A stretch of DNA of 32,000 nucleotides. It comes from Acinetobacter wanghuae. GTDB taxonomy: Bacteria > Pseudomonadota > Gammaproteobacteria > Pseudomonadales > Moraxellaceae. The notes beneath the pieces were generated by a model. That model worked only from the letters and a program-made list of their open reading frames with translations. It was not told where the DNA came from and searched no databases. A program made the position numbers and the translations under genes. This document shows positions 488 to 7,922 of the stretch, piece by piece. Numbering within the stretch: the first letter of the stretch is position 1; every line of letters begins with the position of its first letter. Where the stretch lies: positions 1,440,001 through 1,472,000 of the forward strand of contig NZ_CP045650.1 of NCBI RefSeq assembly GCF_009557235.1, read 5' to 3'.

Positions 488-1679
488 AAGCAGATTCTTG
501 GTTTTCGTCTTCGTTTTCTTCTTTTTTAGGTTCTTCATACATCGTAAAGGCGGTCGCTGCTGCATCTTGCGAAGCATGCCTTCTTTGCCCTTTGAGTTTG
601 ATCTGCAACCTTAATTCATTGGTCGAATCGGCATTGCGTAAGGCTTCTTCATAAGAAATTGCACCTTCGTTATATAAATCAAAGAGTGCCTGATCAAAGG
701 TTTGCATGCCCAATTCACGTGACTTTGACATAATACCTTTTAGCTCATGGAATTCGCCTTTGAGAATTAAATCTGAAATAAGGGGGGTATTCAGCATAAT
801 TTCAATAGCAGCACGACGCCCTTGGCCATCTTCTGTCCGAATTAAACGCTGTGAAATAATCGCTTTCATATTCGATGATAAATCCATCAATAATTGATTA
901 CGGCGTTCCTCTGGGAAAAAGTTAATAATCCGATCAAGAGTTTGATTTGCATTATTTGAGTGTAGCGTTCCTAAACATAAATGGCCCGTTTCAGCAAAAG
1001 CAATTGCATGTTCCATGGTTTCAGTATCGCGAATCTCACCAATCAAGATCACGTCAGGTGCTTGACGTAAGGTGTTTTTCAGTGCGTTATGCCATGAATG
1101 ACAATCGACGCCCACTTCACGATGCGTAATCATCGACTTTTTGTGTTTATGTACGTATTCGACTGGATCTTCAACGGTAATAATATGTCCTGCTGAATTT
1201 TCATTACGGTAGTCGATCATGGCAGCCAGTGAGGTTGATTTACCTGAACCCGTGCCACCGACAACAAGTACTAACCCACGTTTTTCCATAATTACGGATT
1301 TAAGTGACTCTGGAAGTTTAAGTTTTTGAAAATTTGGAATTTCTGCAGTAATGGTTCGAATCACCATGCCTACATTCAACTGTTGTTGAAACACATTCAC
1401 GCGAAAACGCGATACACCGGGAACGGTAATCGCAAAATTACACTCAAGCTCTGTTTCGAATTCTTTACGTTGCCGTTCATTCATTAAACCATAGGCAAAT
1501 AGCTTGGTTTTCTCCGCGGTCAATGTCTGTTGCCCGAAAGGTTTCATCAAACCTTGATGCTTAATACTGGGTGGAAAATCAGCCGTGATAAACAGATCCG
1601 AACCGCCGTATTCAACCACTTTGGTTAGCATATGATGCATAAAGCGTTGTGCTTCTTCTAATAGTTCTGCTGTAAACAT
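486..1679 (-). CDS. pilU: PilT/PilU-family type IV pilus retraction-type ATPase (PilU-like)
   Basis: Walker A GGTGSGKST and Walker B DVILIGEIRD are present, with the His-box region GHLCLGTLHSNNA. The C-terminal NTPLISDLILKGE segment resembles PilU rather than the PilT AIRNLIRE motif. Similarity to P. aeruginosa PilU runs the full length, from memory. Confidence 0.85.
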   Translation of the reverse strand: MFTAELLEEAQRFMHHMLTKVVEYGGSDLFITADFPPSIKHQGLMKPFGQQTLTAEKTKLFAYGLMNERQRKEFETELECNFAITVPGVSRFRVNVFQQQLNVGMVIRTITAEIPNFQKLKLPESLKSVIMEKRGLVLVVGGTGSGKSTSLAAMIDYRNENSAGHIITVEDPVEYVHKHKKSMITHREVGVDCHSWHNALKNTLRQAPDVILIGEIRDTETMEHAIAFAETGHLCLGTLHSNNANQTLDRIINFFPEERRNQLLMDLSSNMKAIISQRLIRTEDGQGRRAAIEIMLNTPLISDLILKGEFHELKGIMSKSRELGMQTFDQALFDLYNEGAISYEEALRNADSTNELRLQIKLKGQRRHASQDAAATAFTMYEEPKKEENEDENQESA

Positions 1680-2977: not shown

Positions 2978-3016
2978 GTCTTTCTTTCCTTGGGACTGAT
3001 CATACAGTCCATACTT

Positions 3017-3157: not shown

Positions 3158-3188
3158 AAAAAAACCTGACCAGGGTTGCCGATCAGGT
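3158..3188 (-). terminator. Attenuator terminator (8-bp stem plus U-tract) in the DAHP synthase leader
   Basis: On the minus strand, ACCUGAUC (3188-3181) pairs with GGUCAGGU (3171-3164), including one G.U pair, around a 9-nt loop. Six more U residues follow the stem (3163-3158). Confidence 0.65.
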
Positions 3189-3234
3189 ATTAACTTGGTG
3201 GGCAACCTTTTCTCTGCCCGAACACGTTCAGGCA
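3173..3234 (-). promoter_or_regulatory. Alternative leader RNA helices (anti-antiterminator and antiterminator) of the attenuator
   Basis: Minus-strand helices: UGCCUGAA/UUCGGGCA (3234-3215); GGGCA/UGCCC (3219-3215 with 3204-3200); GGUUGCC/GGCAACC (3207-3201 with 3180-3174). The last is mutually exclusive with the terminator: its 3' arm lies in the terminator loop, and the terminator 5' arm lies in its loop. Confidence 0.55.
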
Positions 3235-3235
3235 A

Positions 3236-3289
3236 CTATCTAAATTGCCAAAAATAATACGCGTTAGTTTGAAGTGATTGCTTTAACAT
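3236..3289 (-). CDS. Candidate attenuation leader peptide, 17 aa (MLKQSLQTNAYYFWQFR)
   Basis: The ORF runs from ATG 3289-3287 to TAG 3238-3236. It carries UAU UAU UUU UGG CAA UUU at 3259-3242. The stop codon directly abuts the first leader helix. Caveat: no convincing Shine-Dalgarno upstream. Confidence 0.55.
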   Translation of the reverse strand: MLKQSLQTNAYYFWQFR

Positions 3290-3322
3290 GTGAATTTGTT
3301 CAAATGGTTATCTCTAAAAAAT

Positions 3323-3351
3323 AAAATACGCTGTATTCGCAGCTTTGACAA
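3323..3351 (-). promoter_or_regulatory. Candidate sigma70 promoter for the leader and DAHP synthase transcript
   Basis: Minus strand: TTGTCA (3351-3346), a 17-nt spacer, then TATTTT (3328-3323). The predicted start is near 3316, about 27 nt upstream of the leader ATG. Such matches are easy to find in AT-rich DNA. Confidence 0.3.
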
Positions 3352-4041: not shown

Positions 4042-5103
4042 ATGAATAAGCTAGCAAACCCTTTAGAGCTCTGTGGATTTGAATTTATCGAATTCGTGTC
4101 TCAAGATGGAGAACTAGATGCAATTTTTCAAACCATTGGTTTTAGTAAAGTCGCAAAACATAAATCTAAAAATGTGTATTTATGGCGCCAAGGTAATATC
4201 AATATCATTCTCAATTATCAGCCTGAATCTTATGCTGCGTTCTTCTTTAAAGAACATGGTCCTTCAGCATGTGCAATGGGTTTTAGAACCAAAGATGCAG
4301 CAAAAGCGTTTAATAAAGCCGTCGAATTTGGTGCAGAACCAATGTATTCGAAAATTGGCCCAATGGAACTGAATATCCCAGCCATTAAAGGGATTGGTGG
4401 CTCACCGATTTTCTTAGTCGATCGTGATATTTATCAAAGTGATTTTATTTTCTTTGATGATGTAGAACTCAATCCTGTCGGTGCGGGTTTAAAAGAAATC
4501 GATCATTTGACCCATAATGTCTATAAAGGTCGTATGCAATATTGGTCAGATTTCTATGAAAAAATCTTTAACTTCCAAGAAATTCGTTATTTCGATATTA
4601 AAGGTGAATATACGGGTTTAACCTCAAAAGCCTTAACTGCCCCGGATGGTAAAATTCGTATTCCATTGAATGAAGATTCCGACAAAGGAAATGGGCAAAT
4701 TGCAGAATTTCTCAATGAGTTTAATGGCGAAGGGATTCAGCACATTGCTTTTATTACCGATGATTTGATTGGCACATGGGATAAGTTAAAGGCTTTAGGT
4801 GCGCAATTTATGACGCCGCCGCCAAGCACCTATTATGATATGTTGCCTGAGCGTTTACCGAATCACGGTGAGCCGACAGAAGAATTGCAAAAACGTGGCA
4901 TTTTACTTGATGGCAATACCGAAGGCGAAGAAAAGCGTCTGCTGTTACAGATTTTCTCTCAAAATATGCTCGGTCCAGTATTCTTCGAGTTTATTCAACG
5001 TAAAGATGATGATGGTTTTGGTGAAGGTAACTTTAAAGCGCTGTTTGAATCAATTGAGCGCGATCAAATCAAACGTGGCGTACTTGATATTTCCAACGCT
5101 TAA
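4042..5103 (+). CDS. hppD: 4-hydroxyphenylpyruvate dioxygenase
   Basis: The length is about 350 aa with two VOC/glyoxalase-like halves. Motifs: EFIEF N-terminus, [15 protein letters not shown], and FFEFIQR...[15 protein letters not shown] at the C-terminus. An RBS GAGGA lies upstream. Confidence 0.9.
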
Positions 5104-5136
5104 TCCTGTTTTAATCTCTTAAATTATACGACCTTC

Positions 5137-5163
5137 AATGTGCATACGCTCTGTATGCGCATT
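5137..5163 (+). other. Stable 11-bp hairpin between hppD and aroP (no U-tract)
   Basis: AATGTGCATAC (5137-5147) pairs with GTATGCGCATT (5153-5163), including one G.U pair, around a 5-nt loop. No T-run follows, so it could be a partial terminator or an mRNA-stabilising or processing element. Confidence 0.4.
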
Positions 5164-5273
5164 GGATGGTTGCATCTGATGAATTGCCTTTTACTAATTT
5201 TTGATTGTGTGTCGATGAATAAAAATAACAAAGAAAATTCATTCATCTTCAAAATAAGCACGATCCAACATGG

Positions 5274-6686
5274 ATGATGATAAAAATGCAGCAGATAGAA
5301 CAAGGAAACCTGAAAAAAGGTTTAAGTAATCGACATATTCAATTGATTGCCCTCGGTGGTTCAATCGGTACTGGACTCTTTCTCGGTATTGCACAGACCA
5401 TTAAATTGGCAGGTCCGTCGGTTATTTTAGGTTATGCCATTGCCGGTTTAATTGCTTTTTTAATGATGCGCCAACTCGGTGAAATGATTGTTGAAGAACC
5501 TGTAAGTGGTTCATTTAGCCATTTTGCTTATAAATACTGGGGCAAATTTGCCGGTTTTATGTCGGGATGGAACTATTGGGTCTTAAACATTTTAGTATGT
5601 ATGGCAGAACTCAGTGCTATCGGACTTTATATTCACTATTGGTGGCCTGAAATCCCGACATGGGTTTCTGCACTCGGCTTCTTTATTTTCATTAATGTGA
5701 TTAATTTACTTCACGTTAAATTATTTGGTGAAATGGAATTTTGGCTCGCGATTATTAAAGTTGTGGCAATTATTGCCATGATTGCCTTTGGTAGTTATTT
5801 ATTGGCCAGTGGTAGCGGTGGCACACAGTCAAGTCTACAAAACCTATGGGAGTTAGGTGGCTTCTTCCCGAATGGTGTGATGGGTTTGGTCATGGCAATG
5901 GCGATGATCATGTTTGCCTTTGGCGGTATTGAACTAGTCGGCATTGCAGCTGCGGAAACTGAAAACCCGCAAAAAACTTTACCGAAAGCAGTGAACCAAA
6001 TTGTATACCGCGTTCTACTCTTCTATATCTTAAGTTTAGTGATTATTTTGTCGCTTTATCCATGGAACCAAATGGCACAAGGTGGTAGTCCTTTTGTCAT
6101 GATCTTTGATTCTTTGGGCAGTCAAACCGTTGCGACCATTTTAAACTTTGTGGTACTGACGGCTGCGGTCTCTGTATATAACAGTACGAATTATTGTACC
6201 AGTCGCATGCTGCTCGGCTTGGCACAACAAGGCAATGCACCGAAATTTTTAAGTAAAATTAATCTGCGTGGTATTCCAGTGAATGCCGTAATGGTATCGG
6301 CATTCTTTACTTTAATTTGTGTGTTAATCAATTACTTATTTCCAGAAAAAGCCTTTAGCTTACTGATGATGCTGGTTGTTGCCGCGATTGTGATTAATTG
6401 GGTCGTCATTTCTTATACCCATTTAAAGTTTAAAAAACATATGCATGCAACGCAGACCCCAACGCTATTTCCAAGTATTGCCTATCCGTTTAGTAACTAC
6501 CTCTGCATTATTTTTATGTTTGGCATTTTAGTCATTATGAGCCAAACACCAGGTATGCGCGTTGCGGTGATGATGCTTCCGATCTGGATTTCTATTTTAA
6601 CGATTGCTTATTTTTTCAAAAATCGCAAAATAACGAACACCAAATTGGCATTAAAAGATAAGATACAATCAGTTCCAAAGGCTTGA
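5274..6686 (+). CDS. aroP: Aromatic amino acid:H+ symporter (APC family, AroP-like)
   Basis: Similarity to E. coli AroP is near-colinear, from memory (NRHIQLIALGGSIGTGLFLG, GEMIVEEPVSGSFSHFAYKYWG, FGEMEFW). It has 12 hydrophobic segments. The start could be any of the ATGs at 5274, 5277 or 5286. Confidence 0.88.
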   Translation: MMIKMQQIEQGNLKKGLSNRHIQLIALGGSIGTGLFLGIAQTIKLAGPSVILGYAIAGLIAFLMMRQLGEMIVEEPVSGSFSHFAYKYWGKFAGFMSGWNYWVLNILVCMAELSAIGLYIHYWWPEIPTWVSALGFFIFINVINLLHVKLFGEMEFWLAIIKVVAIIAMIAFGSYLLASGSGGTQSSLQNLWELGGFFPNGVMGLVMAMAMIMFAFGGIELVGIAAAETENPQKTLPKAVNQIVYRVLLFYILSLVIILSLYPWNQMAQGGSPFVMIFDSLGSQTVATILNFVVLTAAVSVYNSTNYCTSRMLLGLAQQGNAPKFLSKINLRGIPVNAVMVSAFFTLICVLINYLFPEKAFSLLMMLVVAAIVINWVVISYTHLKFKKHMHATQTPTLFPSIAYPFSNYLCIIFMFGILVIMSQTPGMRVAVMMLPIWISILTIAYFFKNRKITNTKLALKDKIQSVPKA

Positions 6687-6716
6687 TTTGTTTAATATAT
6701 AACGAAGGATGCATTC

Positions 6717-7922
6717 ATGTTTCAACATGTAGATCATTATGCAGGTGACCCGATTCTGTCTTTGATGGAAGAATTTGGTAAAGATGAACGCACGCAAAAA
6801 GTGAATTTGAGTATTGGTCTTTATTATAACGAAGACAATATTGTTCCTCAGCTCAATGCCATAAAAACGGCATATAAAAATATTGAGCCGAGCAATGATC
6901 AGGTTAAACTTTACTTACCGATGGATGGTTTGAAGTCTTATAATCAAGCAACACAAGCCCTTGTTTTAGGTGAAGATAGTCCTGCACGTCGTGATGGACG
7001 TGCTGTAACCATTCAAACCTTAGGTGGTTCAGGCGCACTGAAAGTGGGCGCGGATTTCCTGAAAAAATATTTCCCTGAATCGGACATTTGGGTGAGCCAA
7101 CCGACATGGGAAAACCACATTGCGATCTTTAATGGCGCTGGCATTCAATCTCATTTCTATCCGTACTTTGATGCCAATACCAATGGTGTCAATGTGGCAG
7201 CTATGCTTGAATGCTTAAACCAATTGCCTGCCAAGAGCATTGTATTATTGCATCCATGTTGCCATAACCCCACAGGTGCCGATTTAGTCCCTGCCGAATG
7301 GGATCAAGTGATCGAAGTCTTAAAGCAACGTGATTTAATTCCATTCCTCGATATTGCGTATCAAGGTTTTGGTCAAGGTTTAGAGCAAGATGCGTATGCA
7401 ATTCGTGCTTTAGATCGTGCTGGCATGAATTTTATTGTCAGCAATTCGTTCTCTAAAATCTTCTCGCTTTATGGCGAACGCATTGGCGGTTTAACCTTTG
7501 TTTGTGATGATCAAGCGACAGCGCAAACCGTATTGGGACAATTAAAAGCGACTGTGCGCCGTATTTATTCAAGTCCAGCGACCACAGGTGCCTTACTTGT
7601 CAATAATGTGTTGAATGATGCTGAACTCACTGCAGAATGGCAGGCTGAACTGACTGAAATGCGTGAACGTATTATTCGAATGCGTCACCTTTTAAATGAA
7701 AAATTAAGCCAAGCGTTGCCTGAACGCGACTTTAGCTATTTGGTCAAACAACAAGGCATGTTTAGCTATACGGGTTTAAGTGCTGAACAAGTAGATATCT
7801 TAAAATTACAATACGGTATTTATTTGGTTCGTAGTGGTCGTATGTGTGCCGCGGGACTGAATTTAAGTAATATTGATTATGTTGCTGACTCAATTGCAGC
7901 CGTGCTTCAAGCGACAGCTTAA
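6717..7922 (+). CDS. tyrB: Aromatic-amino-acid aminotransferase (class I PLP enzyme)
   Basis: [23 protein letters not shown], the [18 protein letters not shown]-lysine motif and SGRMC are present. It is colinear with E. coli TyrB/AspC. The AGGA RBS lies at 6706-6709. Confidence 0.88.

Follow-up and report, generated by a model that had tools for sequence, protein, structure and literature searches.

A probable ribosome-mediated attenuator and a conserved second aromatic leader reading frame upstream of DAHP synthase in Acinetobacter

How a transcript bound for a class I 3-deoxy-7-phosphoheptulonate (DAHP) synthase gene is controlled before it reaches that gene is the question raised by a 32-kb stretch of Acinetobacter wanghuae DNA (the window), in which the leader and the DAHP synthase features all lie on the minus strand. 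The promoter-proximal part of the leader (stage 1, 3351-3158) is very probably a classical ribosome-mediated transcription attenuator acting on DAHP synthase, with a six-segment architecture resembling the his leader, as judged from sequence and predicted folding. Stage 1 would read the charging of Tyr-, Phe- and Trp-tRNA jointly and, we infer, respond to aromatic supply. Beyond its terminator lies a second aromatic-rich open reading frame (ORF2, stage 2), followed by a hairpin next to the ribosome-binding site of the gene.

Stage 1 consists of a sigma-70-type promoter, a short leader ORF (ORF1) and a chain of alternative helices (Table 1). The promoter keeps its place and sequence across 48 Acinetobacter loci, with TTGTCA almost always present and a -10 element that is chiefly TATTTT. 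Aromatic codons account for five of the final seven sense codons of ORF1, namely the regulatory codons UAU UAU UUU UGG (3259-3248) and an additional UUU (3244-3242). Helix A:B is seen both in the minimum free energy (MFE) fold and in the RNAalifold consensus, with 98.7% of cells paired across 44 non-redundant species, the set behind all helix pairing statistics; promoter and nascent-folding statistics refer to 48 loci or species. B:C (99.1% paired, -10.6 kcal/mol) reaches a probability of 0.78-0.92 when the aromatic codons are masked, and C:D is 98.5% paired (-9.0 kcal/mol). The antiterminator D:F (-9.3 to -10.1 kcal/mol) is paired in 98.4% of cells within Acinetobacter and in 92.6% across Acinetobacter and Pseudomonas, and the terminator E:G in 99.8%. 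Helix energies in the window form a graded ladder, from -8.1 kcal/mol for A:B up to -13.5 kcal/mol for E:G. The terminator scan places the E:G stem at 3188-3179 with 3173-3164, enclosing the loop CAACC. D:F and the terminator overlap, segment F supplying the terminator loop and its inner pairs. Because segment E sits within the D:F loop directly against F, and the gap between F and G is 2 nt, E:G and D:F are mutually exclusive. The predicted termination state, with A:B, C:D and E:G side by side, is what the MFE fold of the free leader shows.

Table 1. Leader, DAHP synthase and neighbouring features in the window
Feature	Position	Strand	Description and basis
Promoter, sigma-70-type	3351-3323	minus	-35 TTGTCA 3351-3346, 17-nt spacer, -10 TATTTT 3328-3323; consensus scan
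Leader ORF1	3289-3236	minus	MLKQSLQTNAYYFWQFR, 17 codons, tail ...YYFWQFR, UAG stop; translation
Helix A:B	3249-3231	minus	GGCAAUU 3249-3243 with AGUUGCC 3237-3231; Trp-Gln codons to the segment just past the stop
Helix B:C	3234-3215	minus	UGCCUGAA 3234-3227 with UUCGGGCA 3222-3215
Helix C:D	3219-3200	minus	GGGCAG 3219-3214 with UUGCCC 3205-3200
Antiterminator D:F	3207-3174	minus	GGUUGCC 3207-3201 with GGCAACC 3180-3174
Intrinsic terminator E:G	3188-3158	minus	ACCUGAUC 3188-3181 with GGUCAGGU 3171-3164; full stem 10 bp
ORF2 Shine-Dalgarno GGAG	3131-3128	minus	Direct reading; UUGGAG conserved in leader alignments
Leader ORF2	3121-3017	minus	MTTFNYFYFSNFYWSYFNKVMNLAMQLQRPITLK, then stop; 10 aromatic codons, one Trp; translation
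Hairpin GGACUG-UAUGAU-CAGUCC	3010-2993	minus	6 nt past the ORF2 stop, 1 nt before the DAHP synthase Shine-Dalgarno
DAHP synthase initiation region	2991-2975	minus	Shine-Dalgarno AAGGA 2991-2987, ATG 2977-2975; AAGGA/AGGA conserved
DAHP synthase, class I (AroF/G/H-type), 349 aa	2977-1928	minus	NCBIfam TIGR00034 413 bits, NF009395 476 bits; protein 100% identical to that of A. wanghuae
Intrinsic terminator ending the DAHP synthase unit	1916-1886	minus	12-bp stem and T-run; terminator scan
Divergent cluster, aromatic catabolism and uptake	4042-7922	plus	hppD (4-hydroxyphenylpyruvate dioxygenase) 4042-5103, aroP (AroP-type permease) 5274-6686, aromatic aminotransferase 6717-7922

We take the element to be real because it is conserved, since single-sequence statistics barely exceed chance: the leader fold has a z-score of only -2.1, and the window holds nine stop-free six-codon runs with at least five aromatic codons, against 5.0 +/- 2.8 in shuffles. 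The comparison set comprises 80 orthologous Acinetobacter loci (L001-L080) and four from deeper clades (L081-L084), representing A. baylyi (L081), the calcoaceticus-baumannii complex, A. junii and one other. ORF1 is kept in 84 of 84 loci that reach the region (79 of L001-L080, L081-L084 and the window), with the consensus MLKQP..SNA[YT][YF]YFWQ[FY]x; locus L060 does not extend to ORF1, and ORF2 alone is visible there. Codons 2-10 of ORF1 show an entropy per codon position of 4.1/1.6/7.5, biased to the third position as in translated sequence. The RNA between the Trp codon and the U-tract is almost invariant in the Acinetobacter alignments. Paired cells amount to 99.1% for the termination set (A:B, C:D and E:G) and 98.8% for the antitermination set (B:C and D:F), against 15-61% in slid-register controls, and all substitutions in the alternative helices are pair-compatible. 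The sole compensatory pair within the genus lies in B:C (G-C in 34 species, G-U in seven and A-U in three), within-genus covariation being almost nil because each nucleotide serves two alternative helices.

Much of this anatomy had been proposed in an earlier sequence-only reading of the window. The promoter that it named is recovered by the scan and conserved in the 48 loci, its ORF with a Tyr/Phe/Trp tail is confirmed by translation, and helices B:C, C:D, D:F and E:G, together with a pairing of the UGG-CAA codons with B (here A:B), are present where it put them. Its terminator is likewise present with a U-tract, the stem being 10 bp rather than the 8 bp proposed and the U-run spanning the 7 nt from 3164 to 3158. 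It had also cautioned that no good Shine-Dalgarno precedes the leader ATG, correctly so: in Acinetobacter only a weak purine patch of GAACA/GAAGA type is found there.

Two side observations concern ORF1. A 72-aa TTG-initiated ORF in the ORF-finder list (3235-3017, minus) starts with a TTG directly after the ORF1 stop, with ORF1 and ORF2 in the same frame; other species do not share this relation of frames, which marks the 72-aa ORF as an artefact rather than a gene. In most Acinetobacter species, ORF1 codons 3-5 (AAG CAA CCN) carry GCAACC, a copy of the F segment, which pairs with D in predicted ribosome-free folds (L036, 2199-2205) and is a possible additional safeguard by which a lack of translation would lead to termination. 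The window reads GCAAUC at 3281-3276 (minus), so pairing of this type with D is absent there.

These elements suggest the following mechanism. Transcription would begin ~27 nt ahead of ORF1. With a ribosome at the UAG stop, or with none, B would be masked or paired with A; with B unavailable, C:D would pair and F would stay free, so that E:G and the U-tract would terminate transcription near 3158. A ribosome stalled on UAU-UAU-UUU-UGG would instead cover A, allowing B:C to form and D to be released. Released D would pair with F upon emergence of the latter, E:G would be sterically barred, and polymerase would read through. The choice would be kinetic, set by folding order, rather than thermodynamic.

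Folding of nascent transcripts, cut just after F and with the ribosome footprint masked, was examined in 48 species. When the ribosomal A site holds UGG or one of the first three aromatic codons, the mean D:F probability is 0.93 and exceeds 0.5 in 46 of the 48 species, versus means of 0.49 with the ribosome at the stop codon and 0.55 without a ribosome. The barrier from D:F to the terminator is ~14.7 kcal/mol, and nested refolding costs ~14 kcal/mol in each of the steps C:D to D:F and D:F to E:G; the helix formed first should therefore persist while polymerase crosses the U-tract. The proposal that D:F is an antiterminator exclusive of E:G thus draws support from the nested geometry, 98% pairing and the 14.7 kcal/mol barrier. 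For the accompanying ribosome-position logic, the rise of D:F to 0.93 on stalling from about 0.5 has the right direction and the switch predicted for Pseudomonas is clean, but the window itself favours D:F in all states and its full-length RNA always folds into the terminator, so that the outcome would depend on kinetics.

The closest non-Acinetobacter cluster of DAHP synthases, 55% identical, belongs to the Pseudomonas group, and the leader architecture is present, in GC-rich sequence at ~1180-1311 of each locus, in all six loci compared (L085-L090, from P. kuykendallii, Aquipseudomonas alcaligenes, P. solani, Stutzerimonas nosocomialis, P. oryzae and P. boanensis). The counterpart of ORF1 has a GGAG Shine-Dalgarno, a tail reading ...YF(F)YGYWFS... 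and a stop codon within segment B; downstream are segments C and D (GGGUCGCC) and a terminator with a stem of 13-14 bp and the loop CGG-Y-AACCC, which corresponds to segment F in Acinetobacter. Predicted folds contain A:B, C:D and the terminator when no ribosome is present, and B:C and D:F when a ribosome occupies UGG in the nascent transcript. A ribosome placed on the stop codon gives C:D without D:F. As folded in silico, the Pseudomonas versions would switch exactly as the attenuation model requires. Comparison of the two genera reveals three compensatory double changes in the terminator, and none of 500 shuffles attains the observed covariation score. The orthologue alignment that the sequence-only reading had proposed as a check therefore finds the ORF, its aromatic codons and the helices conserved genus-wide, with one compensatory change in B:C and three in the cross-genus terminator.

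The Pseudomonas leaders correspond to Rfam RF00627, 'Pseudomonas sRNA P15', at 83-104 bits (gathering score 70), and the consensus structure of this family is the state formed by A:B, C:D and the terminator. A scan of the window against Rfam, another check proposed earlier, yields no family at gathering level; under permissive settings RF00627 matches the element itself full-length (3263-3163, minus) at 14.8 bits and E 2.7, below the threshold of 70. This weak match gained meaning once the Pseudomonas loci were found. A covariance model built from Acinetobacter alone (32 leaders) returns the P15 site as the top full-length match in 6 of 6 Pseudomonas loci, with E from 1.5e-4 to 0.047. The reciprocal model match, together with the shared gene context and architecture, therefore identifies the Acinetobacter leader and P15 as diverged homologues. 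Among the Rfam amino-acid leader families (Trp, Phe, His, Leu and Thr leaders), none matches the window at gathering level, and the sole permissive leader match, Trp_leader at 14.7 bits, lies at 3393-3318, outside the element.

P15 is a Northern-positive RNA of ~180 nt with multiple bands, located at 3,299,022-3,299,269 of PAO1. On the same strand, 221 nt downstream of it, lies an ORF of 1092 nt (Livny et al. 2006, PMC1524904), which has the size of a gene for a 363-aa DAHP synthase. By analogy, the P15 transcript would be the premature-termination product expected by the model, seen in a homologous system, and the best interpretation of P15 is a leader transcript, cut short by termination, of the DAHP synthase gene in Pseudomonas. 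P15 shares with the Acinetobacter leader a homologous RNA and an orthologous DAHP synthase gene, differing in being catalogued as a small RNA (sRNA) gene and not as a cis leader; because it always lies in cis upstream of DAHP synthase, the listing of RF00627 as an sRNA gene suggests misclassification. No paper recasting P15 as an attenuator was found in the open literature, and an earlier in-silico prediction in subscription journals is possible. A study of a delta-miaA P. aeruginosa strain reports raised shikimate-pathway metabolites and ascribes them to trpL, which is neutral evidence here. The locus goes unmentioned in the accessible portions of two Acinetobacter transcriptome and sRNA papers (PMC6182133 and PMC11472050), and the literature yielded no Acinetobacter Term-seq study.

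The cataloguing of P15 as an sRNA gene and the accumulation of a discrete ~180-nt RNA raise the alternative that stage 1 RNA is mainly a trans-acting sRNA in which ORF1 is incidental, or has a dual role like Sinorhizobium rnTrpL; attenuator-derived sRNAs and leader peptides with trans activity are documented (PMC7968998 and PMC7298713). We consider this improbable, given that the leader is always in cis, on the same strand and directly upstream of DAHP synthase in two families, that a Tyr/Phe/Trp-tailed ORF is kept despite almost complete nucleotide divergence, and that the stop codon sits on segment B in both genera; a trans role may exist besides the cis one. Least probable, with a very small chance of being right, is a switch governed not by the ribosome but by a protein or small-molecule ligand (TRAP-like, T-box or riboswitch), since the unusual invariance of RNA 3253-3158 within the genus, which could mark a binding surface, is accounted for by the dual helix membership of each nucleotide, no Rfam riboswitch or T-box matches the window even under permissive settings, and the conserved aromatic ORF and the placement of its stop codon would be left unexplained.

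Several points weigh against reading stage 1 as an attenuator. The aromatic run of ORF1, taken alone, lies within chance for an AT-rich genome. The weak Shine-Dalgarno patch before ORF1 in Acinetobacter calls for caution on its translation, in favour of which speak the third-position bias of codons 2-10 and the GGAG of the Pseudomonas homologue. Near-invariance leaves minimal covariation inside Acinetobacter, the covariation inferred across genera comes from two clades, and the transcript evidence comes from Pseudomonas P15. Modelled at equilibrium, the complete leader adopts the terminator with a probability of 0.92-0.98 for every ribosome footprint position, that is, regardless of where the ribosome sits. 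This equilibrium preference is not decisive by itself: in the trp leader, too, the terminator exceeds the antiterminator in stability, and the decision falls co-transcriptionally. In the nascent transcript of the window itself, D:F is predicted to be favoured in all states (0.96-1.0), and because of this the termination branch in the window would rely on folding order or a kinetic trap.

The classical leader-peptide attenuators are E. coli trpL, pheL and hisL, the last with six segments (A-F). Stage 1 shares with them an ORF rich in end-product codons, a stop overlapping the first switching segment, an exclusive helix chain and an intrinsic terminator, hisL being the closest. It differs in that the Acinetobacter peptide mixes Tyr, Phe and Trp codons, that the gene is the common-pathway DAHP synthase and not a terminal-branch operon, that a second sensing ORF lies past the terminator and that no Rfam leader family matches. 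Attenuation in trp and phe is summarised in PMC11802643, as is the C. glutamicum aroR-aroF system, in which a Phe-Tyr-Phe leader peptide attenuates a DAHP synthase operon (Neshat et al. 2014 via PMC11802643). The likeness to stage 1 extends to an aromatic leader peptide, transcription attenuation and a DAHP synthase operon, while C. glutamicum belongs to another phylum, its peptide has no Trp codon and Tyr supply is reportedly ineffective there. No second module of upstream open reading frame (uORF) and hairpin is described for it, and a sequence relationship to Acinetobacter is not expected. Any novelty implied by the sequence-only reading was therefore overstated, the aroR-aroF attenuator and a catalogued Pseudomonas relative being known; that reading also described the first half of the leader rightly and overlooked the second aromatic ORF.

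ORF2, with its GGAG, lies 36 nt beyond the terminator U-run, and a promoter scan of the terminator-to-ORF2 stretch in the window finds no second promoter. Aromatic codons occupy 10 of 14 positions in its cluster, which is unique in the window, with 0.03 clusters of at least 9 of 14 expected. The only other dense cluster (at least 9 of 14), at 495-540 (plus), is antisense to the 3' end of a PilT/PilU-type ATPase gene (1679-486, minus) and is probably a compositional by-product of that gene. All Acinetobacter loci contain ORF2 (consensus M.t.NYSYFSNFYWFYFSQ.M......RPITLK), and it recurs in 6 of 6 Pseudomonas loci as a 31-34-aa ORF carrying Tyr, Trp and Phe (for example MISYRTYATYYRNSDWRFSRFAAALTPLNRTPS, then stop), preceded by GAGGA in five of the six. 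The pattern Y-Y/F-x-N-x-x-W-x-F/Y is common to both genera although the nucleotides are almost wholly different, which argues for selection on the aromatic codons. Neither ORF2 nor the Pseudomonas counterparts of ORF1 and ORF2 match a Pfam or NCBIfam family at E up to 10. Acinetobacter ORF2 is never called as a gene, and Pseudomonas ORF2 is annotated only as 'hypothetical protein'. In A. baylyi, ORF2 (L081, 2369-2461) has lost the Trp codon (...SNVDYFYFNQ...) and kept its Tyr and Phe codons, a natural variant informative on which amino acids stage 2 reads.

The terminator scan and RNAalifold reveal no intrinsic terminator after ORF2. The 3010-2993 hairpin is the sole consensus structure of this second leader, and no conserved alternative was found for ORF2. 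Its loop varies in length and sequence, and one stem pair covaries, being A-U mostly, G-U in two loci (L052 and L083) and G-C in A. baylyi. Throughout Acinetobacter the stem starts 6 nt past the stop, which is UAA without exception, and finishes 1-3 nt short of the Shine-Dalgarno; 48 Acinetobacter and 6 Pseudomonas loci share the order of stop, 0-7 nt, stem, 1-3 nt and Shine-Dalgarno. The Pseudomonas stem occupying that slot is unrelated in sequence and much stronger, at -17 to -24 kcal/mol. Judged from this predicted geometry, a ribosome terminating on ORF2 would necessarily have to unzip the hairpin. On the plus strand, 2993-3010 scores as terminator-like (stem and ATACTTTTAT), probably incidentally, because no convergent plus-strand gene ends there.

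Stage 2, as its sequence suggests, most likely checks the same signal a second time, after initiation, working through translation or through the fate of the DAHP synthase mRNA. Tentatively, the leader may be a two-stage aromatic sensor in Pseudomonadales, in which the attenuator is followed by ORF2 acting via the stop-adjacent hairpin at the ribosome-binding site. The output of ORF2 in such a sensor is perhaps translation coupling, Rho exclusion or mRNA processing, and an arrangement of this kind matches no described attenuator design. Hairpin coupling, Rho exclusion and mRNA processing or stabilisation each have partial support and a polarity problem. The segment GCUCAAAUAAA (3030-3020, minus), comprising the last two ORF2 codons, the stop and one base, is also of note: CUC and AAA occur in almost every species and UAA in 48 of 48. 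Near-invariance that includes third positions suggests an RNA-level constraint beyond coding, for example an A-rich single-stranded target of Hfq, RNase E or an sRNA.

The constant geometry in both genera, built from unrelated stems and including a covarying hairpin, fits with ORF2 as a translational coupler and sensor, a possible though doubtful reading in which the hairpin limits direct 30S entry by occluding a standby site and ribosomes finishing ORF2 unzip it, permitting initiation, or reinitiate. The supply of ribosomes arriving through ORF2 would then set DAHP synthase translation. The strong and conserved ORF2 Shine-Dalgarno agrees with this. So do published examples in which translating a uORF exposes the ribosome-binding site beyond it (PMC8092293), and a hypothesis that invokes reinitiation after leader ORFs (PMC4833913). 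Its polarity looks wrong, however, as an aromatic stall would lower DAHP synthase translation just when stage 1 raises transcription, and the Shine-Dalgarno itself lies outside the hairpin.

Base composition bears on a second proposal, rather unlikely in our estimate, that ORF2 shields read-through transcripts from Rho, a C-rich, G-poor loading site being covered by translating or stalled ribosomes as in tnaC- and speFL-like systems. The C/G ratio is 1.5-2.6 for ORF2 in both genera, compared with mostly 1.0-1.4 for ORF1, ~1.0 for the whole gene and 1.2-1.7 for its first 300 nt. In addition to this skew and the lack of an intrinsic terminator downstream of ORF2, the 180-nt stretch from the terminator to the gene would be untranslated without ORF2. 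The skew may nevertheless stem from Thr, Pro, Ser, Gln and Leu codons, and a stall at codons 4-17 would expose the most C-rich 3' half, leaving the polarity uncertain.

Translational attenuation of the ermC type, in which the aromatic block would pair with the DAHP synthase ribosome-binding site until a stall releases it, is unlikely. Such pairing is predicted in about three quarters of Acinetobacter species. On average the duplex energy is -11.0 kcal/mol versus -8.4 kcal/mol in shuffles, and accessibility of the ribosome-binding region goes up from 0.33 to 0.51 once a ribosome is masked in at the Trp codon. Significance is reached in only about one third of species, though; the window is at chance (-9.2 versus -8.5 and -9.2), several species are worse than chance, the ribosome-binding-site spacer varies, and the 6 Pseudomonas versions show no effect. 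Masking of the ribosome-binding site by the ORF2 block was accordingly rejected as a general mechanism, having failed composition controls and being absent in Pseudomonas. Two further candidates were set aside: a long-range helix between the ORF2 aromatic codons and the stop-codon region, strong in the window and not recovered by RNAalifold, and a fusion of ORF2 to DAHP synthase by read-through or frameshifting, in frame in the window but with offsets ranging from -124 to -153 nt among species.

The uORF and arrest-peptide systems secM-secA, ermCL, tnaC and speFL act via ribosome-binding-site structure or Rho. These, along with the mgtB intergenic uORF, which acts through structure by the downstream ribosome-binding site (PMC8092293), resemble stage 2 in having a uORF that ends a few nt before a stable hairpin at the main ribosome-binding site. 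ORF2 differs from them in that the Shine-Dalgarno target is outside the hairpin, the sensor codons lie far upstream of the stop and no arrest motif was recognised. The long Salmonella mgtCBR leader likewise carries a pair of short sensing ORFs one after the other; its tandem attenuators mgtM and mgtP respond to differing signals and each choose between stem-loops (PMC3641672). In contrast, both Acinetobacter ORFs would read the same three amino acids, and for ORF2 no alternative structure was found.

A 1-kb AT-rich gap separates DAHP synthase from the divergent plus-strand cluster; between the leader promoter and this cluster are 690 bp of AT-rich sequence with no called feature. The cluster is not kept as a neighbour, flanking genes differing in other Acinetobacter clades. 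A TyrR-type operator at the leader promoter was considered and rejected, its matches being no better than chance.

Since Corynebacterium already provides an example of a DAHP synthase attenuator, stage 1 is less novel than first thought, and the conserved module of ORF2 and hairpin is the more novel part. Conserved across two bacterial families, this module offers a compact system for hungry-codon sensing without a terminator, and the comparison brings to light two small conserved ORFs that annotation either omits or marks as hypothetical. For P15, an orphan for 20 years, it provides a probable function as the terminated leader of the PA2943-type DAHP synthase, which would correct its cataloguing in Rfam. 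In Acinetobacter, including the calcoaceticus-baumannii complex and A. baylyi, the leader gives a testable account of carbon flow into the shikimate pathway, in which control via the joint charging of three aromatic tRNAs would contrast with the TyrR/TrpR repressor scheme of E. coli, and it is relevant to engineered production of aromatic compounds in A. baylyi and Pseudomonas.

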